Shown here piece by piece: positions 1-37,252 of a DNA stretch of 39,240 bases. The position numbers and the translations under genes are program-made. Below the pieces are notes generated by a model. That model searched no databases and was not told the origin of the DNA. It was given only the letters and a program-made list of their open reading frames with translations. Within the stretch, counting starts at the first letter, position 1; each line of letters begins with the position of its first letter. Origin of the DNA: a virus (taxonomy: Duplodnaviria > Heunggongvirae > Uroviricota > Caudoviricetes); IMG/VR virus record IMGVR_UViG_2634166457_000020, positions 1-39,240 of that record. The stretch is one strand, 5' to 3'.

Positions 1-1251
1 GTGCTTACCGATACAAAATTAAAAAACCTCAAGCCGCAGGACAAACTATACAAAGTCTCCGATCGTGACGGGCTGTATGTAGCTGTGCTTACGTCAGGCA
101 CGGTCTCGTTTCGCTATGACTACCGTATCAACGGTCGCCGCGAAACACTGGTAATCGGGCAGTATGGGCGTGACGGTATCAGCCTAGCAGAAGCGCGAGA
201 AGAACTGATTGCTGCAAAGAAGCTGCTTAAAGCAGGCCAATCGCCGGCTGCGGCTAAACGTGACGGTATCAAAAAGATTCGTGGTGCCGAGACGTTTGCG
301 GTACATACCGACAGTTATATGAAACACGTCATCCTGGCTGACAGTACCCGCGCAATGAAGCAGGCGGTGATCGACCGTGACATACTTCCGGTTCTTGGCA
401 ACAAAATGATGGCTGAAATTACCACATCGATGGTTCGTGATTTGTGTGACCGGATTGTCGAACGCGGTGGCCGGGCAACAGCAGTACAGGCCAGGGAGAT
501 TATCAGCAGCGTATACCGTCACGCCAATGACCGTGGTCATGGTTTGTTTAATCCTGCGGCTGACATTAAACCTTCGTCTATCGCCATATTTAAACCACGA
601 GAGCGAACACTGACACCAGAAGAAATTGGCCTGTTCTTCCGCACGCTGGATGCCATTGGTGCTATGGGCACTATGAAAATGGCTTTAAAGCTGGTGCTTA
701 TCACTATGGTTCGTAAAGGCGAATTCACCAATGCAACGTGGGATGAAATAGATTTTAAAAAATGGACATGGACAATTCCTTCAGACCGCATGAAGGGAAG
801 CCGGGCGCACGTTATTTACCTTCCTAAACAGGCACAGGATATATTGGTTGGGTTGCAGATGTGCGCTGGTGGAAGTGAATATCTGGTTCCTGGTCGTTAC
901 AATTTCCGGAAGCCATTATCTAATGCCGCGCTGAACTCTCTGATCGACAGAACGGTGAAAATAATAAATGAAGATGGTGAGCATATTCAGGACTTCACCG
1001 TACACGATATGCGCCGTACAGCCAGTACGTTGTTGCATGAGGCTGGTTATCCTTCAGACTGGATTGAAAAGGCTCTGGCACATGAGCAGAAAGGTGTGCG
1101 CGCCGTATATAACAAAGCGGAATACGCCAGACAGCGCGCCTACATGTTGCAGCAGTGGGCCGATATGATTGATTCCTGGATTAACGGGGAGCATACGGAT
1201 CTGATTCCGTTCTCCCCGTCGAAGTTTGAGAAGTGGATGGCGGGGGAATAA
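1..1251 (+). CDS. int: Tyrosine-type site-specific integrase (P4-like), 416 aa, GTG start at window position 1
   Basis: Full-length ORF; N-terminal MLTDTKLKNLKP typical of P4-family integrases; C-terminal catalytic region HDMRRTASTLLHEAGY ... LAH ... VYN consistent with the R-H-R-Y tyrosine recombinase signature. Confidence 0.9.
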   Translation: MLTDTKLKNLKPQDKLYKVSDRDGLYVAVLTSGTVSFRYDYRINGRRETLVIGQYGRDGISLAEAREELIAAKKLLKAGQSPAAAKRDGIKKIRGAETFAVHTDSYMKHVILADSTRAMKQAVIDRDILPVLGNKMMAEITTSMVRDLCDRIVERGGRATAVQAREIISSVYRHANDRGHGLFNPAADIKPSSIAIFKPRERTLTPEEIGLFFRTLDAIGAMGTMKMALKLVLITMVRKGEFTNATWDEIDFKKWTWTIPSDRMKGSRAHVIYLPKQAQDILVGLQMCAGGSEYLVPGRYNFRKPLSNAALNSLIDRTVKIINEDGEHIQDFTVHDMRRTASTLLHEAGYPSDWIEKALAHEQKGVRAVYNKAEYARQRAYMLQQWADMIDSWINGEHTDLIPFSPSKFEKWMAGE

Positions 1252-1254
1252 CGT

Positions 1255-1449
1255 TTAATTATTCTGCTGATTTTCTTCCATCTCGTCTTCTGCTGCCAGT
1301 GATTCAATTTTATCTGTGAACATTGCTGACAGTGTTGCAAATTCAGCATCAGTGACAGCGGGAATTGGAACAAACCTGATCCCGCTGTGTGCAAGCATGT
1401 TTGCAGTTTCAAGGCATTTCCTTAAATCTGCTGGTGATGCCCTGTTCAT
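1255..1449 (-). CDS. Small acidic hypothetical protein (64 aa, C-terminal EDEMEENQQNN), last gene of cargo operon
   Basis: Internal Met of the 1255..1569 ORF; its ATG (1449..1447) overlaps the methyltransferase stop (1448..1446) as ATGA, indicating translational coupling; no recognisable domain. Confidence 0.4.
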   Translation of the reverse strand: MNRASPADLRKCLETANMLAHSGIRFVPIPAVTDAEFATLSAMFTDKIESLAAEDEMEENQQNN

Positions 1450-2093
1450 GCTGCACGCTCCCGCCCCTGGTTGTCTGTTGGTGACAGCGGAGCATTGCTG
1501 AATGCATTTGTTAATCTGGCAATATCCAACGCGTATCCAGGGTGTAGTTGCACTGCCGGGTCTTCGCACTGATTACCCCAAACATCGAAGCCATGAGACG
1601 ACTGGCGGGCGAACAGTTCAATGCGAGAAACATCGCCTAACAATTGCACAAGTTTTTCACGCACGACATCTGGTTTTCTTGAATGCTCAAGCCGCGGTGC
1701 GGTAAATGACTGAACGATCCCTGCATTAATGCGCGTAGGTAGTTTTCCCTTTACCGCAAACAGGCAATCTTCACTATTGGCGCGAGTCATGTGTCCCATA
1801 CCCATAACCAGTTTATCTGGTTGTCGACTACCACATTTTATCCACGTGAATCCCTTCATGGTCATCAGACGGAATCCCCAGGCTTCAACAACTTTTAGTG
1901 CTTCGAGTGGTTGTGTTGGCACCCACCACATTGCCAACAGACAGTTTTCATCGGACAAATCCCACACAGGAAGGCGGCAGATATCCAGCACACTCATAAC
2001 CGGATATTTAAAACCAGCGCCGCGATTACCATCTGCGGCTTTGTCCCGGTATACCCAGGGTGGATCTGCATAGATTAGCGTGTATTTTTTCAT
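1446..2093 (-). CDS. MT-A70 family (beta-class) N6-adenine DNA methyltransferase, 215 aa
   Basis: N-terminal catalytic motif IYADPPWVY (DPPW) characteristic of MT-A70/N6-adenine methyltransferases; start taken at MKKYTLIYADPPW (ATG 2093..2091), which overlaps the upstream gene stop (2092..2090) as ATGA. Confidence 0.8.
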   Translation of the reverse strand: MKKYTLIYADPPWVYRDKAADGNRGAGFKYPVMSVLDICRLPVWDLSDENCLLAMWWVPTQPLEALKVVEAWGFRLMTMKGFTWIKCGSRQPDKLVMGMGHMTRANSEDCLFAVKGKLPTRINAGIVQSFTAPRLEHSRKPDVVREKLVQLLGDVSRIELFARQSSHGFDVWGNQCEDPAVQLHPGYALDIARLTNAFSNAPLSPTDNQGRERAA

Positions 2094-3193
2094 TGTTCTG
2101 CTCCCAGACTTCCTTTGGTAAAAGCTTGTATCAGCCTGTTTGCTGCCGCTTTCTGTGCTGCTACATTGGCAATAACTGATAGTTTTTCCTGGCTTGCTTT
2201 CGTGCAGATCCCAACCCAATTATCCATTAGGAAAAAATTCTCTCTTTCTGCGAAGTCAGTATTTGCACATAATGTTTCAATCATTGAAATTATTTCTTTT
2301 ATTGAGTGATTAACCATCATTTGCTGAACAGCATAACCAAAAGCGTTAATCATCACTGCATGAAACTGGATATATTCTCTTTTGTATTCTGATTGCTTTG
2401 TACCATGGCGAATTGCTTCTAGTTGTGTAAGACATAACCATGATTCCCATACTGACTCGATGTTACCAATTTCTAGTTTTTTTCCATTATGAATACAAAA
2501 TTTTGATGTTGAATCACTTAATGCTTTGAAACTCACCCACATGTTTGACTTTGACGGAACAACGTTGTGCTCGAAGTCAGTGACTTCTGCAAAAGTGTCA
2601 TGTTGCGACAGGAAAGACACCATTTCTTGGGCAACATCGTTTCGTCCGTCATACGCCATATTAATTGCTGCAGATGGTTTTGAAACATTATTATTAATGT
2701 CAGAAAAGAACTGCTGACGCGCCTTCAAAGGAAGGTTATGCGTAAGTATAAGAGGAATCATAATTGTTTCACCATAATTACGGCAGAACTCAGCTAATCC
2801 TGCAGCACGATGCTGTCCATCAAATAATTTTATTTCTGCATCCATAGGAAATCTAGCTAAACCGACATTAGTATTTCCAATCTCATGGAACTCTATTTCT
2901 GAGTTACAATTTCCGACCAATGGTGGAACAATAAATGGTTCCTTTTTCTCGTAAGCGTTGACTAAATATTGATAAAACTTTTTTACCCTGGTTGGATTAA
3001 TTTCACGTTGAGAACGTTCAAGGGTACTTCCCGTATTGTCGGTTGCCAATACTCTCGATAGTGCTCTTGCTGGTACTGTCATCATAAGTATTACAGTGCT
3101 TCCCTGCGTTCCTCGTGATGCGGGAAATTCAAAGAAATAATCGCCTACCTTGCTCATGATATTACCTTTTATATTATTGTTTTGTTTATTCAT
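2090..3193 (-). CDS. DGQHR-domain protein (DndB-like / ParB-like DNA-binding), 367 aa (or 355 aa if start is ATG at 3157)
   Basis: Contains the FDGQHRAAGL motif defining the DGQHR domain family; tight coupling to the downstream methyltransferase. Confidence 0.7.
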   Translation of the reverse strand: MNKQNNNIKGNIMSKVGDYFFEFPASRGTQGSTVILMMTVPARALSRVLATDNTGSTLERSQREINPTRVKKFYQYLVNAYEKKEPFIVPPLVGNCNSEIEFHEIGNTNVGLARFPMDAEIKLFDGQHRAAGLAEFCRNYGETIMIPLILTHNLPLKARQQFFSDINNNVSKPSAAINMAYDGRNDVAQEMVSFLSQHDTFAEVTDFEHNVVPSKSNMWVSFKALSDSTSKFCIHNGKKLEIGNIESVWESWLCLTQLEAIRHGTKQSEYKREYIQFHAVMINAFGYAVQQMMVNHSIKEIISMIETLCANTDFAERENFFLMDNWVGICTKASQEKLSVIANVAAQKAAANRLIQAFTKGSLGAEQ

Positions 3194-3452
3194 AAACCAC
3201 CCCGCAACATCCTATGCCGCTATAGTCGCCACGGCGAAGGCCGTTACCTTTTGTGATACATTGGTCCCTGCGAACCGCGATCCTTGCACGCTCAACATCA
3301 CCAGAAGCAACATCCATACACTGAAGCCAAAGGTGAGCGGCAATGCGGAACTGCCCTTTTTTCTCTCTTTCAATCGCGCGTTTTTCGATCTCTATCGCCG
3401 CAGGAGTAACGGCGACAATCTTTGACGGACTGCGCATTGAAACCTTGTTCAT
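3186..3452 (-). CDS. Small hypothetical protein, first gene of cargo operon (about 83-99 aa; start uncertain: 3485, 3452 or 3437)
   Basis: ORF 3186..3485 on minus strand; its stop overlaps the start region of the DGQHR gene; no recognisable motif. Confidence 0.35.
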   Translation of the reverse strand: MNKVSMRSPSKIVAVTPAAIEIEKRAIEREKKGQFRIAAHLWLQCMDVASGDVERARIAVRRDQCITKGNGLRRGDYSGIGCCGVVYE

Positions 3453-3594
3453 GTGATATTTTTCAAGTCGGCTTAACTTTCTCACTTAATCCAACCCTCT
3501 CTGAAAATTAATGCCAGCAGATAAAGCCATGCTGAAACAGAGGCCAGAAATAAGTACCATCCTGACCATTTGCTCCAGTGCCTTAGCAGCACAC

Positions 3595-3843
3595 TCATGC
3601 AGCGTTGCTCACAGGACGATATACACGTTGCTGAACAGGAGGCTTTTTACCCTGGAACTCTGCCGGGCTTGCTGCCTGACGTTCATCAAGCCAACGCTCA
3701 ACTTCGTCACGGTTCCATGCGCAGCGTTTGTCAGTGATATACCAGCGTTTAGGAAATTCACCTGCGCGCTCCATACGGTCGATAGTGCTCCATGACAGTG
3801 GCACCACCGCCAGGAGTTCCTTCTTACCTAATGCACCTTTCAT
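3595..3843 (-). CDS. alpA: AlpA-family excisionase/transcriptional regulator (Xis-like), 82 aa
   Basis: Sequence LLAVVPLSWSTIDRMERAGEFPKRWYITDKRCAWNRDEVERWL matches the AlpA/Xis winged-helix pattern; sits near int. Confidence 0.7.
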   Translation of the reverse strand: MKGALGKKELLAVVPLSWSTIDRMERAGEFPKRWYITDKRCAWNRDEVERWLDERQAASPAEFQGKKPPVQQRVYRPVSNAA

Positions 3844-3892: not shown

Positions 3893-4915
3893 TTACTCGA
3901 ATTCTGGACGCATATCGTTAAGCGTCATCATGAATTTTTGGTGATATTCATCACCGAGCTTTTCAGCCATGGTGTTAATTTCATTTTCAGCGCGCTTGAA
4001 CATCGTTTTTGCATCTTCAGCAGATGGATCCAGGCTATTAAGTATCGCGATGATATATTCTCGAGCTTCTTCTCGTTCTGAATCTGAAATTGGCGATAGG
4101 TGTTGACGCTCATCGTCAACTACGGAATATTCACCAGTGATAACAGCTGCGTTATCTTGGCTAAGTCCAGCTTCAGCGCGCTCATCCATAACAACAGCCT
4201 TCTGCATTTCAATAGAAACAGGAAGATATTTGAACAGTCGGCGAATTACTGTTTTTTTAGCCATCTCATCGAAGTGATCAACCCATGGGCCACTGCTACC
4301 GGCTTTGCTCAGTGCACGAACTTTCTCAACGTCTGCCCGGCTCATAACTTCAAATTGGACTCCGCCATCTTTCAGTCGTGCAACGGCGTAAACGTGCGTT
4401 AATTCTCCGCGGTCACCTGTTTCGCAAGGTAAATGCTCGAGCGTTTCTTCCAGGCCGTATGAGTAGCTGAATTTGTCGTTTGTATGTACGGTACGAGCCG
4501 AGATGCTCAGGATCTGCCCAGAGCGGCGGGCAAGGTCAATCATTCCGCGATAGCCGATAATCAGCTGTGCTTCTGTAGATACGGTTTCCCATCTTCCATT
4601 TACTTTCTGGCGTTTGTCGAACGGTATCAGGTAAGCGTGTCCAAGAGCTCCGCCTGGTTCAAGACCCAATTGGGCACATTGCATAATTGCCCCCAGGAAG
4701 CTGGCTTGGTCGCATGATGCAAGTTTTGGAACCTTTCGGATCTCTGTGGTTGCTATGCGCGCCAGACGGTCTGCTGTCATGTGCTTTGGAAGTGCCAAAG
4801 CCATCTGAGCTTTAATTTTTGGGTCTGCCAGAAGTCCGGCCAGAGTTGTTGGTTTCTCATTATGATGTGCAACTTGGTTACCGGTAGCCGCTGCCTTAAG
4901 TGCATTGATAGACAT
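3893..4915 (-). CDS. recT: RecT-family single-strand annealing recombinase, 340 aa
   Basis: Length and sequence character typical of RecT; immediately downstream of a YqaJ-type exonuclease in the same operon. Confidence 0.8.
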   Translation of the reverse strand: MSINALKAAATGNQVAHHNEKPTTLAGLLADPKIKAQMALALPKHMTADRLARIATTEIRKVPKLASCDQASFLGAIMQCAQLGLEPGGALGHAYLIPFDKRQKVNGRWETVSTEAQLIIGYRGMIDLARRSGQILSISARTVHTNDKFSYSYGLEETLEHLPCETGDRGELTHVYAVARLKDGGVQFEVMSRADVEKVRALSKAGSSGPWVDHFDEMAKKTVIRRLFKYLPVSIEMQKAVVMDERAEAGLSQDNAAVITGEYSVVDDERQHLSPISDSEREEAREYIIAILNSLDPSAEDAKTMFKRAENEINTMAEKLGDEYHQKFMMTLNDMRPEFE

Positions 4916-4924
4916 TTTTTCTCC

Positions 4925-5824
4925 TTACTTCATTCTGAAGACGCGTTGTGTCGTTGTTGTTTTGAATTTTTCGAATAACTCAGGGTGTACTGACTGGAAT
5001 AGCTTCTGGTCGAATCTGTTGCTGATCTGAGATTTCCATGTGCAGAGCGGCTTTCCGTCCAGGGTCAGGACTGAGTGCTCTTGCATGTACATCTTCAGCT
5101 TCTCTTCTGATATAGCTATTTCTTCTTCCAGTGATTTTCTGCGTGACTTCATGTCTCGTAGATCGTTGAATAGTGCGAGTGCCTTTCCGTCAGCCTCGAT
5201 ACTTGTCCCGGCCTCTTTCTCAAACATCAGCGATACATCGCTTACGCTGGTAGCTTCCGGCGGGTTAAGATTTTTCACTCGGTCCCAGAAAGCGATTTCT
5301 TTTTCTAAGATCGCCTGGATAGTTTCTTCATCACGCTCAACCCGATAGATTCGGAAGTCGTCGCCACCGATAAGCACACCGAAAACGCATACCTGTTTGT
5401 TTGTAACCATCAACCCGTGCATGGCCTGGGCCGTGTAATGCACAGGAATTGCATCTGTCTGGATTTCTCCCCATTCTTTGGCTTTGAACGGACTAACTGT
5501 TTTTATCTCAATGTTCTCGCCTGACGCTGCTTCTGCATCGATCTCAGCTGCAATAAAATCGTAATCACGGTGGATATAGCGGTTTCCGCGATGAACGATT
5601 TCCATCCCTGTTTCCTCAGAAAGCAGGTCTATTACGTATGGCTCCATACGCTGGCCACGCGTGAAAACTTTCTGCTTGCTTGGGTCTACTGGTTTGACAC
5701 GTGGCTGGACCTTATCCAGATAAACCTCAAGCGGGGTGCGCCATGGGCTAATTCCAAGAATCCCTGCAACATCGCTTCCTCCGATGTATTTTGTTCTATC
5801 CATGATTCCAGCGTTCCGCATCAT
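4925..5824 (-). CDS. YqaJ-like (lambda-exonuclease-like, PD-(D/E)XK) recombination exonuclease, 299 aa
   Basis: N-terminal RTKYIGGSDVAGILGISPWRTPLEVY matches the YqaJ viral recombinase exonuclease pattern; start ATG (5824..5822) overlaps the upstream gene stop (5823..5821) as ATGA. Confidence 0.75.
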   Translation of the reverse strand: MMRNAGIMDRTKYIGGSDVAGILGISPWRTPLEVYLDKVQPRVKPVDPSKQKVFTRGQRMEPYVIDLLSEETGMEIVHRGNRYIHRDYDFIAAEIDAEAASGENIEIKTVSPFKAKEWGEIQTDAIPVHYTAQAMHGLMVTNKQVCVFGVLIGGDDFRIYRVERDEETIQAILEKEIAFWDRVKNLNPPEATSVSDVSLMFEKEAGTSIEADGKALALFNDLRDMKSRRKSLEEEIAISEEKLKMYMQEHSVLTLDGKPLCTWKSQISNRFDQKLFQSVHPELFEKFKTTTTQRVFRMK

Positions 5825-6281: not shown

Positions 6282-6371
6282 TTACCTCGGTCTGTTACCG
6301 TTGAGGTAATAATTATGCGTATCTGGTTTGGTGTCAATAGATATGAGTTAAAAAAATTACCCATTAGGTAA
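6282..6371. promoter_or_regulatory. Leftward operator/promoter cluster (OL-like): TTACC-GTTGA-GGTAA (6295-6309), TTACC-CATTA-GGTAA (6357-6371), extra TTACC half-site 6282-6286
   Basis: Perfect 15-bp inverted repeats between the repressor terminator and the first leftward gene. Confidence 0.6.
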
Positions 6372-6383
6372 TCGAATAGGCAA

Positions 6384-6406
6384 TAAAAAAGCCGCCAGAA
6401 GGCGGC
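6384..6406 (-). terminator. Rho-independent terminator downstream of repressor gene (GCCGCC-AGAA-GGCGGC plus U-tract on minus strand)
   Basis: 6-bp GC stem 6391-6406 preceded on plus strand by A-run 6384-6390. Confidence 0.6.
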
Positions 6407-9885: not shown

Positions 9886-10515
9886 ATGGAAAGTAATATC
9901 AAAGGGTTAGTTTCCGCCGGGCATGAGATGGCTTCGGAACTGAAAGCAGAATGTGGTGCCGTTGATATGCGCAGTGTGGCAAAGCTGATCAGCGATTTGG
10001 CAACGCAACTGGAAGTGCAACTGGTGCGTGCTAATGCGCTGGCCGAAGACCACCAGAGAGCGATTGAGTCAATTAAGCAGGCTGATTCGGCTGTTAAGTT
10101 GGCACACGAGAACTTTTCGGCGCTGGCGGCGGAGAATATAGCACTGAAATCTGCACACCCTCAGCAATTCGGTCAGAAAATGATGGATGCATTGGTTGCA
10201 TTGGTTGCATATGAGGAATGCCAGGACGATGTACCAGAAAGAGGAATGCTTAATGCGTTCTTCATCCTTCGTGACAGTGTTTGCATTGACACTCCTGCTA
10301 CTGGCGCTTTCCTGGCGGAAGTGCGGGCGCAGGGGGTGGATGCTGCTATAGGAGCTGCAAAAAATCTGGTGGCCCAAGAATATGAGTATAAGGATTTCAA
10401 AGCGGCGCAGAGTGATTGCTGTATGCACCCTGGTTCAGACCTGGTAGGGAAGGTTGAAATGACTGAGTGGTTAGTTGACTTTGCTGCCCAGCTTCGCAAA
10501 GGAGGCAACCAGTGA
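9886..10515 (+). CDS. Hypothetical protein, 209 aa
   Basis: ORF with coding character in the nin-like region; no recognisable motif. Confidence 0.45.
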   Translation: MESNIKGLVSAGHEMASELKAECGAVDMRSVAKLISDLATQLEVQLVRANALAEDHQRAIESIKQADSAVKLAHENFSALAAENIALKSAHPQQFGQKMMDALVALVAYEECQDDVPERGMLNAFFILRDSVCIDTPATGAFLAEVRAQGVDAAIGAAKNLVAQEYEYKDFKAAQSDCCMHPGSDLVGKVEMTEWLVDFAAQLRKGGNQ

Positions 10516-11096
10516 GCGAAATTAATTACCAGGCACTGCGTGAGGCAGCACAGAACGCGAAAGATTTAGGTGAGATTAAGAATTACAAGCGAGGTGAGCA
10601 AGCTGTTGCCGAATTTGAGTCCTTAATAACGCCACACATTGTGCTGGCGCTTCTGGATGAACGGGAAAGGAACCAGCAATACATCAAACGCCACGACCAG
10701 GAGAACGAGGATATTGCGCTTACGGTAGGGAAGCTGCTAATCGAAAACGGCCGGCTTGTTGCCGATACGCTACGCCACTTAGCTGATAACGAAATCGACT
10801 CTGATTATTTTGCTATCACCTCAACGAATGAGAACGGTACTGAAATTGATCATGAGATGGCTATTACCGATTACGCACTGCAAGCTGCCGGAACTGTAGA
10901 CGAATTGGTTGCGGCGTTGGAATCCGCAGAGAAGCGCATTGCAGAACTGGAAGCACGGGAAATACTGCTCCCGGAACGTAGCAGCATGCTTCATCGAACA
11001 GATTTTCACGATGATTACCAAACGGTAATGGCATACAAAGTTTCTGAAGTCATCGATGCAATCCGCGCTACTGGCATTCGCATCAAAGGAGAGTGA
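10512..11096 (+). CDS. Ead/Ea22-like protein, 194 aa
   Basis: N-terminal NYQALREAAQNA and C-terminal coiled segment ESAEKRIAELEARE resemble Ead/Ea22-like lambdoid early proteins. Confidence 0.5.
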   Translation: MSEINYQALREAAQNAKDLGEIKNYKRGEQAVAEFESLITPHIVLALLDERERNQQYIKRHDQENEDIALTVGKLLIENGRLVADTLRHLADNEIDSDYFAITSTNENGTEIDHEMAITDYALQAAGTVDELVAALESAEKRIAELEAREILLPERSSMLHRTDFHDDYQTVMAYKVSEVIDAIRATGIRIKGE

Positions 11097-11613: not shown

Positions 11614-12197
11614 TCACTATTACCAAAGAGCGACTGCTGACAATCAAGCAGTGGCGCGAAACATACGGACCGGGTAGCAACGTTGTACTGCCAGCAGAAG
11701 AAGCGGAAGAACTGGCACGGATTGCACTGGCATCGCTGGAACGCGAACAGATTCGCCACGAGCATGCCAAATGGTCTGACTCCACATTTGGCTGCGTTGG
11801 CCCCATTGGTCCGCTGAAACATCTCTCAAAAGAGGCACTGGAAGCCGCAGCCGAACCAGACGATCTTAGCGAGTGGGCTGATATGCAGTTTCTGTTGTGG
11901 GATGCACAGCGCCGTGCTGGCATCAGCGATGCTGAAATTACCGCTGCTATGGAAGATAAATTGAAGATCAACATGGAGCGCCAGTGGCCTGAGCCAAAAG
12001 ATGGTGAGCCTCGCTTGCACATTAAAGAACCCGGCAACTCTCCGGTAATTCCGGATGGTTGGGTTATGGTGCCGAAGGAACCAACTCAGGCCATGATTAA
12101 AGCGTGGCTATCAGAGATTGCTAACTTTCGCGGTCATGCTGCTGGTTACAGGGCTGCTATTGAGGCAGCACCACAACTGGAGGTTAACCGTGGCTAA
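11610..12197 (+). CDS. DUF550-like phage protein, 195 aa
   Basis: Sequence HEHAKWSDSTFG ... SEWADMQFLLWDAQRRAGI resembles the DUF550 family common in lambdoid prophages. Confidence 0.45.
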   Translation: MITITKERLLTIKQWRETYGPGSNVVLPAEEAEELARIALASLEREQIRHEHAKWSDSTFGCVGPIGPLKHLSKEALEAAAEPDDLSEWADMQFLLWDAQRRAGISDAEITAAMEDKLKINMERQWPEPKDGEPRLHIKEPGNSPVIPDGWVMVPKEPTQAMIKAWLSEIANFRGHAAGYRAAIEAAPQLEVNRG

Positions 12198-36107: not shown

Positions 36108-36136
36108 AAAAAGGCGGCAATGCCGCCTTTGTTTTA
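36108..36136. terminator. Bidirectional rho-independent terminator between tailspike (+) and acyltransferase (-): GGCGGC-AAT-GCCGCC flanked by A-run and T-run
   Basis: 6-bp stem 36113-36127 with AAAAA upstream and TTTGTTTTATTTT downstream. Confidence 0.65.
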
Positions 36137-37252
36137 TTTTATCTTGTATCTTTTTTCAATTTTATTATACAGGATGGCGGAAAGTATAATTGCTAATGTT
36201 ATCGCCCCAAACTGCATCAATATAAAATATCTGGCTGATGTTTGCTCTAGGTTGATAAATTTGCTGTAAGAATTGAATGTAATGTTAAGCGATAACTGAT
36301 GTACTAAATACAAACTGTAACTTATAATACCAATATTCGATATGCTTCTTTTAGAAAAAATAGACGGTCTGGATGCGATAAATGCCATGAAAAATACTGA
36401 TGTCGCGCAGAACATTTCGAATTCATATACTTTAAAATCACCAAAAATCGAATATATAAAGAGCAATGGCATTACGATCCACAAAGCATGTTTCAAATAA
36501 TTATTTGCAGGTTGCTTTATGTACGAAGCAATAAATCCTGTCAGGAAGTATGTCCACATTATTTGTTCGTTCTGATATCCAAGATATATGATTATCAGAG
36601 CTAAAGGTATTAAAGATATTCTTAACGGTTTAATAGCAAATGCACAGGCAAGAAATGGAACTGCTGCATAATATTTCCATTCGTAAGGTAACGTCCATGT
36701 AACAATATTAAGACTCCAGTCCCATATTGATCCGACCCTGATCCCACCCCCCCAGAAACCAAACCCATAAACACTACGAATGACTGTCATTACCTCATCA
36801 ATAGTTTTTATTTGCCCGTATCTCTGGAACATGAAAATTGCAAAAACTATTGTGGAAACAACAACGTATGCAGGAAGTAATCTATAAATCCTTTTCTGGA
36901 AAAAAGAGATATCGAAAATTCCCTTTTTTATAGTAGATGAAAATAAAAAACCTGTTAAGCAAAAGAATATGGATACTCCAAACGCACCCATTTTTTCAAA
37001 TGCGTACGCTGGCTGAATATTCATGTATGGTGATTTTAATCCTATAGCGGCAATTACAGTGTATGAGTGGTTAACGAAAACTAATAGACACGCAACTCCA
37101 CGCAAGCCCTCAAGGCTAAGGTCGTTATGGCTGCCAATTGGCGATATGTCTACAAACTTGTTTAGAACATAGCAAACACATACAGCAAATGTTACAAAAG
37201 AAAATGCATATACTGAATTATGTATACTAAGTAAGGGGAGTAAATTATCCAT
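36134..37252 (-). CDS. Acyltransferase family 3 integral membrane protein (probable O-antigen/surface polysaccharide O-acetyltransferase), 372 aa
   Basis: Motif LEGLRGVACLLVFVNH and many transmembrane segments typical of acyltransferase-3 proteins; AT-rich; adjacent to the tailspike. Confidence 0.75.
   Translation of the reverse strand: MDNLLPLLSIHNSVYAFSFVTFAVCVCYVLNKFVDISPIGSHNDLSLEGLRGVACLLVFVNHSYTVIAAIGLKSPYMNIQPAYAFEKMGAFGVSIFFCLTGFLFSSTIKKGIFDISFFQKRIYRLLPAYVVVSTIVFAIFMFQRYGQIKTIDEVMTVIRSVYGFGFWGGGIRVGSIWDWSLNIVTWTLPYEWKYYAAVPFLACAFAIKPLRISLIPLALIIIYLGYQNEQIMWTYFLTGFIASYIKQPANNYLKHALWIVMPLLFIYSIFGDFKVYEFEMFCATSVFFMAFIASRPSIFSKRSISNIGIISYSLYLVHQLSLNITFNSYSKFINLEQTSARYFILMQFGAITLAIILSAILYNKIEKRYKIK

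Follow-up and report, generated by a model that had tools for sequence, protein, structure and literature searches.

A DGQHR-domain gene inserted before an MT-A70 methylase gene in a phiV10-like prophage, and the recurrence of such pairs in phages

Genes at the locus

We analyzed a stretch of viral DNA of 39,240 nucleotides (IMG/VR record IMGVR_UViG_2634166457_000020, positions 1 to 39,240; hereafter "the window"), which is an E. coli prophage of the phiV10 type (Uetakevirus, epsilon15-like). In E. coli FDAARGOS_1285, a prophage adjoining guaA contains the region in a 99%-identical form. Our subject is a gene for a DGQHR-domain protein that directly precedes a gene for an MT-A70 adenine methyltransferase. 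A sequence-only reading of the window had grouped these genes with two small genes as an operon of four minus-strand open reading frames (ORFs), and all four are present in the ORF list. The locus contains the following features:

3482..3598, minus strand: 38-aa predicted membrane protein, homologue of phiV10p35 (translation MSVLLRHWSKWSGWYLFLASVSAWLYLLALIFREGWIK)
3186..3485, minus strand: PerC-family small regulator, homologue of phiV10p34 (PF06069, 30.1 bits with a cutoff of 22.6, E 6e-7; phrog_868, E 1.6e-61)
2090..3193, minus strand: DGQHR-domain (DndB-superfamily, ParB/Srx-fold) protein, a 367-aa ORF with the motif FDGQHRAAGL
2091..3185, no strand: gene-sized insertion relative to phiV10, 1,095 bp, equivalent to the DGQHR ORF, with ATGA on both sides
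1446..2093, minus strand: MT-A70 family N6-adenine methyltransferase, 215 aa (PF05063; 98% identical to phiV10p33)
1255..1449, minus strand: DUF1382 protein, 64 aa, last gene of the operon (PF07131, E 5e-29; phrog_292; homologue of phiV10p32)

The genes are closely coupled. The DGQHR stop codon overlaps the MT-A70 start in the ATGA at 2090-2093, and the MT-A70 stop overlaps the DUF1382 start in the ATGA at 1446-1449; both overlaps had been noticed earlier and are real. The 38-aa ORF is a fifth coupled gene, which had been missed. It shares an ATGA overlap with the stop of the upstream alpA gene and a GTGA overlap with the longest perC ORF. A further reported overlap, between the first small ORF and the DGQHR start, exists if translation begins at the ATG at 3193. 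The likelier start is Met13 (ATG at 3157, giving 355 aa), which leaves a 28-nt gap after the perC stop. Met13 is used by the Prokaryotic Genome Annotation Pipeline (PGAP) in the 99%-identical prophage, by the PHROG profile and by most homologues, and residues 1-17 of the 367-aa ORF are disordered in the structural model. The perC gene itself has three candidate starts, namely a GTG at 3485 (99 aa), an ATG at 3452 (88 aa) and an ATG at 3437 (83 aa). PGAP calls the 83-aa product in the 99%-identical prophage.

The two small proteins, previously regarded as unknown, belong to the named families PerC (PF06069, with a score above the family cutoff) and DUF1382 (PF07131). Neither matches any PADLOC model. 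The position of the DUF1382 gene is also a variable cassette site, since a Ser/Thr protein phosphatase gene takes its place in E. coli CM2 and in phages BP9, HEMP4 and PAS61.

The DGQHR gene as an insertion

Comparison with phiV10 reveals how the locus was assembled. Homology of roughly 98% breaks exactly at 3186 and returns at 2090. In phiV10, perC runs directly into the methylase gene, with overlapping stop and start codons (TTTATGACTAA). In the window, the same ATG context starts the DGQHR ORF (TTTATGAATAA), and a second ATGA couples DGQHR to the methylase, such that stop/start coupling is retained on the methylase side of the insertion. The GC content of the inserted gene is 38% (33-40%), versus 46-52% in its flanks.

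The genes PerC, MT-A70 and DUF1382 occur together without DGQHR in phiV10, TL-2011b, O157 typing phages 9 and 10 and other phages. We searched 5,426 complete E. coli genomes, in which about 540 records match the region at 95% identity or more. Only 21 of these records contain the DGQHR gene, and about 96% lack it. The full quartet is found in 20 genomes, one more has the phosphatase gene instead of DUF1382, and about 520 have only the trio. No other context among the homologous loci examined keeps all four genes.

Salmonella phage SPN1S has the same order of PerC ... DGQHR-MT-A70 beside int (genes 0031-0035), at 75-77% identity. It differs in having an extra DUF1317 gene and a DGQHR gene of ambient GC, as is true of the DGQHR-MT-A70 pair in SPN1S-type phages in general. 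Other sampled enterobacterial homologues have a GC content of 43-56%, mostly nearer to the flanks, with the exception of one in the AT-rich Xenorhabdus. Since these homologues, including the SPN1S-type pair, have higher GC contents that are mostly nearer to those of the flanks, the DGQHR copy in the window represents a separate acquisition from an unsampled low-GC donor. We conclude that PerC, MT-A70 and DUF1382 are resident phiV10 genes and that DGQHR is a low-GC cassette, which arrived later and fits precisely between perC and the methylase gene. It is not an ancestral gene that phiV10 has lost.

The idea of a dedicated four-gene cargo operon is therefore not upheld: the trio is standard without DGQHR, and the genes form the distal end of the early-left operon of this phiV10-like prophage, as described below. 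The neighborhood survey that had been suggested as a check of co-conservation divides the proposal. The quartet is not co-conserved, whereas the DGQHR-methylase pair recurs.

The DGQHR protein

The assignment of the 367-aa protein to the DndB superfamily, with a ParB/Srx fold, is confirmed by profile matches far beyond chance. Its scores exceed the curated cutoffs for both DndB PF14072 (158.9 bits, cutoff 29.1, E 2e-46) and the TIGR03187 DGQHR domain (191.2 bits, cutoff 58.85, E 3e-56), and the conserved motif FDGQHRAAGL is present as reported. By contrast, its score with the DndB equivalog model TIGR03233 (110.7 bits) is below the cutoff of 328, and the protein does not qualify as DndB proper. 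Its NCBIfam matches are DGQHR, DndB and DGQHR_dnd_1 only, with no DpdB model among them.

The protein has an N-terminal ParB/sulfiredoxin fold with the conserved GxxR phosphate-binding motif. In 44 homologues, with identities down to 28%, the motifs RSQR (60-63), R69, DGQHR (125-129) and RQQxFxDxN (159-167) are invariant or nearly so. We conclude that the protein belongs to the DGQHR clade of the ParB fold and has a conserved nucleotide pocket, that it stands outside of the Dnd and Dpd systems, and that it is not a DUF262-type nuclease. The invariant pocket residues, together with the biochemistry of a DndB-like protein and of DpdB (PMC12704722, PMC10164549), suggest that it may bind or hydrolyze nucleoside triphosphates (NTPs) and bind DNA.

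The helical C-terminal domain has no nuclease match, whether to HNH, DUF1524 or another type, and the model of the protein has no recognizable helix-turn-helix (HTH). We considered whether an R-x5-H sequence in the C-terminal domain is a HEPN-like motif and rejected this, as it is not conserved. Sequence search against PDB chains yielded zero matches, and a BFVD fold search yielded only weak viral matches to DndB, DUF262 and ParB proteins (TM 0.2-0.5).

The family has 234 matches in mobile elements of Enterobacterales. Among the best 120 of these, relatives are 52-78% identical to the protein, its own 99% cluster apart. In Rheinheimera pacifica (L025:3852-6326), we observed tandem DGQHR/DndB-domain paralogues, the second of which reads DGQTR instead of DGQHR.

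The MT-A70 methyltransferase

The 215-aa protein was previously proposed to be an MT-A70 enzyme, and it is, which places it in the beta class of N6-adenine methyltransferases. It matches PF05063 over its full length (positions 1-172 of 172, 79 bits, cutoff 23.9, E 5e-22), and the DPPW that had been noticed is part of a catalytic motif YADPPW at residues 9-14. Its nearest solved structures are the Tetrahymena MT-A70 proteins that form N6-methyladenine (m6A) in DNA (E 2.5e-13), ahead of METTL3, and it matches the PADLOC model MTase_II with E 1e-76. In phiV10-type phages the methylase is solitary. We found no paper on this enzyme in the literature searched.

This family of small MT-A70 proteins is far larger than the DGQHR family, with 1,214 matches. 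The best 120 of these relatives are all single-domain proteins without a ParB domain, and the possibility of a ParB fusion in the longer members of phrog_359 is not supported. One relative, P0125 (297 aa, 97% identity), is a gene call that joins PerC (PF06069) and MT-A70 (PF05063). Presumably this call comes from a prophage without DGQHR, in which read-through or a frameshift joined perC and the methylase gene where they overlap. We also considered kinship to the non-specific prophage methylases M.EcoGII and Hia5, and rejected it because the published descriptions are of a DPPY enzyme of the beta class and of one resembling Dam/DpnM, with no mention of MT-A70 (PMC5778455, PMC3299994).

Recurrence of the pairing across phages

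A DGQHR gene beside an adenine methylase gene was said not to be a textbook system, and this remains correct; the pairing is also recurrent across phages. Our sample of DGQHR neighborhoods consisted of 26 genome loci and 80 loci in viral contigs. Near neighbors were taken as the three ORFs on either side, and about 105 homologous loci were inspected. A first set of MT-A70 matches found with tblastn at distance 0 (loci L072-L100, 73-75 bits) was discarded, as the ORFs in question overlapped the 3′ end of DGQHR in another frame.

Upstream of the DGQHR gene there are usually recombination genes (YqaJ, RecT, SSB) or a ParB-HTH gene. Downstream, either directly or after one phrog_323 HTH gene, we found methylases of five families:

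MT-A70
Dam (PF05869) or a divergent relative in phrog_111
N6_N4, sometimes followed by a C5 methylase
D12 Dam
C5 (in a Vibrio phage)

When DGQHR proteins are clustered at 95% identity, 19 of 42 clusters have a methylase gene within two genes downstream, and none of the 42 has one among the three upstream ORFs inspected. A scan for methylase motif IV ([DNS]PP[YFWH]), which is independent of family, in 44 dereplicated loci gave 18 matches in the first 1.5 kb 3′ of DGQHR (2.9 per 10 kb) and 4 in the remaining 374 kb of flanks (0.1 per 10 kb), an enrichment of about 27-fold downstream if shared ancestry is ignored. The enrichment draws on a dozen or more distinct architectures. Stop/start overlaps (ATGA or GTGA) between DGQHR and the methylase occur with MT-A70, Dam, N6_N4 and D12 partners.

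The pairing appears to be indifferent to the type of methylase, as DGQHR proteins that are at least 95% identical, and fall into one cluster, precede MT-A70, Dam or N6_N4+C5 methylases. A module in lambdoid phages consists of DGQHR, a phrog_323 HTH gene (154 or 179 aa) and a methylase (L114-L131, with the junction at locus position 4462; L043-L067). Here the methylase cassette (MT-A70, Dam PF05869 or N6_N4+C5) is swapped at one fixed stop/start junction. Using the HTH gene as a probe retrieved only 20 close loci, of which 19 have DGQHR, and this provides little information on the DGQHR-less background.

We conclude that the DGQHR-methylase pairing is real, recurrent and position-specific across phages. 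Its components and the general theme of ParB plus methylase are already known. We found no study of phage DGQHR-methylase pairs in the literature searched.

Operon context

The remaining features that bear on the expression of these genes are as follows:

1..1251, plus strand: P4-type tyrosine integrase (Pfam Arm-DNA-bind_3, Phage_int_M and Phage_integrase), 99% identical to that of phiV10
3595..3843, minus strand: AlpA-type excisionase/regulator (PF05930, E 3e-5; phrog_66), 100% identical to phiV10p36
3893-4915, minus strand: RecT (Pfam RecT; ORF of 340 aa), upstream gene in the leftward operon
4925-5824, minus strand: YqaJ-type exonuclease (Pfam YqaJ; ORF of 299 aa), upstream gene in the leftward operon
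6408-6389, then 6337-6309, minus strand: terminator-like hairpin followed by the best promoter-like site (consensus scan)

After recT and the YqaJ gene, the order on the minus strand is alpA, the 38-aa membrane-protein gene (p35), perC, DGQHR, MT-A70 and DUF1382. The flanking genes are 95-100% identical to those of the phiV10 early-left operon (phiV10p32-p36), which has no DGQHR. The promoter-like site at about 6309-6337 is a probable start of an early-left operon that ends at 1255, based on the consensus scan, and the phiV10 annotation has a terminator at the position equivalent to the hairpin at about 6400. Because this promoter-like site and terminator at about 6300-6400 are the sole such pair, the genes from alpA to DUF1382, which are tightly packed and converge on int, make up the part of the early-left operon farthest from its promoter. 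No other good promoter or terminator was detected in the consensus scan of the minus strand from 6300 to 1255. With no convincing internal promoter in that scan, there is no sign of an independent module expressed by the prophage. Judging from this layout, expression in lytic development or on induction is the likely default for the distal genes.

The homology to phiV10 and the FDAARGOS_1285 prophage, which is otherwise 98-99%, ends at a mosaic breakpoint at about 3896. The recT and YqaJ module of the window is unlike both the RecE/RecT fusion of phiV10 and the module of the FDAARGOS_1285 prophage. Elsewhere, the window has an Acyl_transf_3 gene, placed at 36134-37252 (minus strand) by its size alone; phiV10 encodes an O-antigen acetylase of this family. 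It also has a DUF550 dATP/dGTP pyrophosphohydrolase gene and an Ead/Ea22 gene (jointly at 11739-12026 and 10051-10658, plus strand), both of families that are frequent neighbors of DGQHR in other phages.

Comparison with known systems

The DGQHR protein resembles DndB of the Dnd phosphorothioation system in matching PF14072 and TIGR03187 and in its conserved DGQHR motif. DndB, for its part, binds NTPs and serves a DNA-modification module as an accessory or regulator. The difference is that the neighbor of DGQHR is a methylase, not a sulfur-insertion system. The sequence-only reading had seen no other Dnd or Dpd genes, and our results agree. Among the 49 ORFs of at least 70 aa in the window, a Pfam scan detected no dnd gene (dndA, dndC, dndD or dndE), no dpd gene, no TGT or QueC-type family and no second methylase. 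None of dndA, dndC, dndD and dndE was seen among the near neighbors inspected in about 105 homologous loci either.

In the Dpd 7-deazaguanine system, DpdB is partnered with a TGT-like transglycosylase, whereas the partner here is a methyltransferase dependent on S-adenosylmethionine. The window lacks dpdA, dpdC-K and preQ0 genes, and no DpdB profile is among the NCBIfam matches of the DGQHR protein. DpdA strictly needs DpdB, while the MT-A70 enzyme probably works without DGQHR. In addition, Dpd belongs to a chromosomal defense island, and the DGQHR gene here is in a phage operon.

ParB-methyltransferase fusions in phages, plasmids and archaea also combine an NTP-binding domain of the ParB fold with a DNA amino-methyltransferase. 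Like the two-gene arrangement, they are enriched in prophages (PMC12704722; PMC4738411). A fusion is a single polypeptide, whereas DGQHR and MT-A70 are in separate frames with an ATGA overlap, as coupled, independently mobile genes. The ParB-fold part here is also of the DndB/DGQHR clade, not canonical ParBc.

The DUF262 enzymes GmrSD, SspE, DndI and BrxU have a C-terminal HNH or DUF1524 nuclease, which the DGQHR protein lacks, and it is much closer to the DndB models. Nor do the genes correspond to a Type II restriction-modification (RM) system or another catalogued defense system: the only PADLOC matches are to the DndB and MTase_II models, with no complete system.

Possible functions of the DGQHR protein

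We tentatively favor, by analogy with these systems, a role for DGQHR as an optional, methylase-agnostic, NTP-dependent helper that acts on DNA and assists an orphan anti-restriction methylase. The MT-A70 protein would be an orphan phage N6-adenine DNA methyltransferase, made in lytic development or on induction. It would methylate phage DNA, allowing escape from host restriction, and would not require DGQHR for this. The DGQHR protein, as a nuclease-less NTP-binding DNA binder of the ParB/Srx fold, could then aid any co-translated base-flipping methylase, with an NTP-gated clamp or local opening of DNA raising or directing the methylation of phage DNA as it replicates. DGQHR would stand to the methylase as DpdB does to DpdA, with functional coupling and no stable complex, and the two genes would be the split-gene counterpart of phage ParB-methyltransferase fusions.

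Several precedents exist for the individual elements of this proposal. The DpdB ATPase is needed for base exchange by DpdA, and no stable DpdA-DpdB complex was found (PMC10164549). A DndB-like protein binds ATP and GTP (PMC12704722). Fusions of ParB-fold domains with methylases are often seen, notably in prophages, the methylase being of the N6_N4, Methyltransf_23 or (in archaea) MT-A70 type (PMC12704722; see also PMC4738411).

Other observations weigh against the helper role. Any help from DGQHR must be dispensable, because a 98%-identical MT-A70 enzyme occurs in hundreds of prophages without DGQHR. A specific protein-protein interface is disfavored, because near-identical DGQHR proteins adjoin unrelated methylases. 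The 27-fold enrichment, in addition to ignoring shared ancestry, may partly reflect the fixed gene order of early-left operons, and in one lambdoid group the phrog_323 HTH gene stands between DGQHR and the methylase. Moreover, many DGQHR genes have no methylase gene beside them. In E. coli, TraR or Ead/Ea22 genes come next in the most abundant (lambdoid) lineage; in Klebsiella phages, DUF550 is downstream; and on plasmids the neighborhood includes psiA, a relaxase gene or TrbM. That each gene occurs without the other implies that each works without the other, and makes a co-evolved specific interface unlikely.

Plasmid-like DGQHR loci are L018-L020 (Buttiauxella), L137 and L132-L134. The gene in these loci sits immediately 5′ of psiA or within a few kilobases of a NikA/relaxase pair; a further setting is an IncP-like accessory region that also encodes TrbM, H-NS, SNase and topoisomerase III. 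These positions suggest early-entry or leading-region expression of DGQHR. A different context was seen in Pseudoalteromonas phage KB12-38 (L005), where a distant DGQHR/DndB homologue lies amid PAPS-reductase-like genes and a C5 methylase gene. This locus may be a phage-borne DNA modification module of the sulfur type, unlike the enterobacterial contexts.

The many lineages without a methylase raise the possibility, which we consider less likely than the helper role, that DGQHR is unconnected with methylation and is a stand-alone protein that mobile elements express early for anti-defense or host reprogramming. Candidate forms are an NTP-gated DNA binder of the ParB-like kind, such as plasmid HerB/YfjB, and a nuclease-less decoy of DUF262 Type IV enzymes. 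Its adjacency to methylases would then result from both kinds of gene gathering in early anti-defense islands. The plasmid copies by psiA, near the NikA/relaxase pair and in the IncP-like accessory region fit this idea, as does the mobility of both genes, the methylase being swapped independently of DGQHR. HerB is an early-expressed, CTP-dependent ParB-like host reprogrammer (PMC13370423), and plasmid leading regions gather orphan methylases and ParB homologues (PMC7736820, PMC11541004). However, an island does not predict the positional precision that we observe. The methylase is in the next one or two positions, always downstream, at about 27 times the frequency in the other 374 kb; overlapping ATGA coupling is frequent and involves four unrelated methylase families; and a separate acquisition of low GC landed exactly before a methylase gene.

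It is rather improbable that DGQHR is a regulator, i.e., an ATP-modulated, DndB-like repressor that limits a toxic methylase or the operon, comparable to DndB acting on dndCDE or to C-proteins in RM systems. DndB does negatively regulate the dnd modification genes (PMC4507180; summarized in PMC12704722), promiscuous prophage methylases are toxic and kept silent (PMC5778455), and the DGQHR gene is always 5′ of the methylase gene. However, the stop/start overlap leaves no space for an operator or promoter between the two genes, and the DGQHR protein model has no recognizable HTH. Upstream promoters and neighbors are wholly different between phage groups, and DGQHR is nonetheless 70-78% identical. 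Finally, phiV10-type phages keep the same methylase without DGQHR.

The least probable explanation, to which we assign very little weight, is the exclusion or defense module expressed from the prophage that the sequence-only reading had raised, here taken as a minimal RM-like system in which DGQHR is a ParB-like nuclease or toxin against unmethylated DNA and MT-A70 protects self: ParB/DUF262 domains do work in the restriction enzymes GmrSD, SspE and DndI (PMC11662687), the PADLOC DndB and MTase_II models match the two proteins, and the genes are adjacent, but the DGQHR protein has no nuclease domain, PADLOC recognizes no complete system, each gene occurs alone (a solitary DGQHR in many elements would be self-toxic, and the methylase is alone about 25 times more often than with DGQHR), one type of DGQHR pairs with methylases of different families and chemistries, forming m6A or 5-methylcytosine (m5C), and expression in the prophage state is unsupported, with no internal promoter found.

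A broader reading can be formulated, although we regard it as unlikely: the stand-alone DGQHR proteins of phages and plasmids could be an unrecognized class of methylase-agnostic epigenetic accessory factors. In a first version, they may be NTP-gated DNA clamps that license or speed methylation when mobile-element DNA replicates or enters a cell, with any base-flipping methyltransferase expressed alongside, be it for m6A or m5C. They would then be the trans-acting form of the ParB domain in ParB-methylase fusions. In a second version, they may be nuclease-less mimics of DUF262 sensors (GmrSD, SspE, DndI, BrxU) that protect methylated DNA against Type IV restriction or poison the sensor enzymes. 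The second version would account for the presence of DGQHR beside methylases of any family.

Implications

Orphan methylases are a main route by which phages escape restriction. ParB-fold domains fused to phage methylases are common yet unexplained, and at this locus the two functions are split into independently mobile genes. The findings also affect annotation, since thousands of genes in enterobacterial prophages labeled "DGQHR domain" or "DNA sulfur modification" lie outside of Dnd, and their presence should not be taken to indicate phosphorothioation. If DGQHR proves to be dispensable and unrelated to methylation, the locus would be a case of ordinary phage mosaicism. Natural phiV10-type prophages that differ only by DGQHR offer a clean genetic system for the role of a ParB-fold NTPase in methylation, or for an unrelated anti-defense role.

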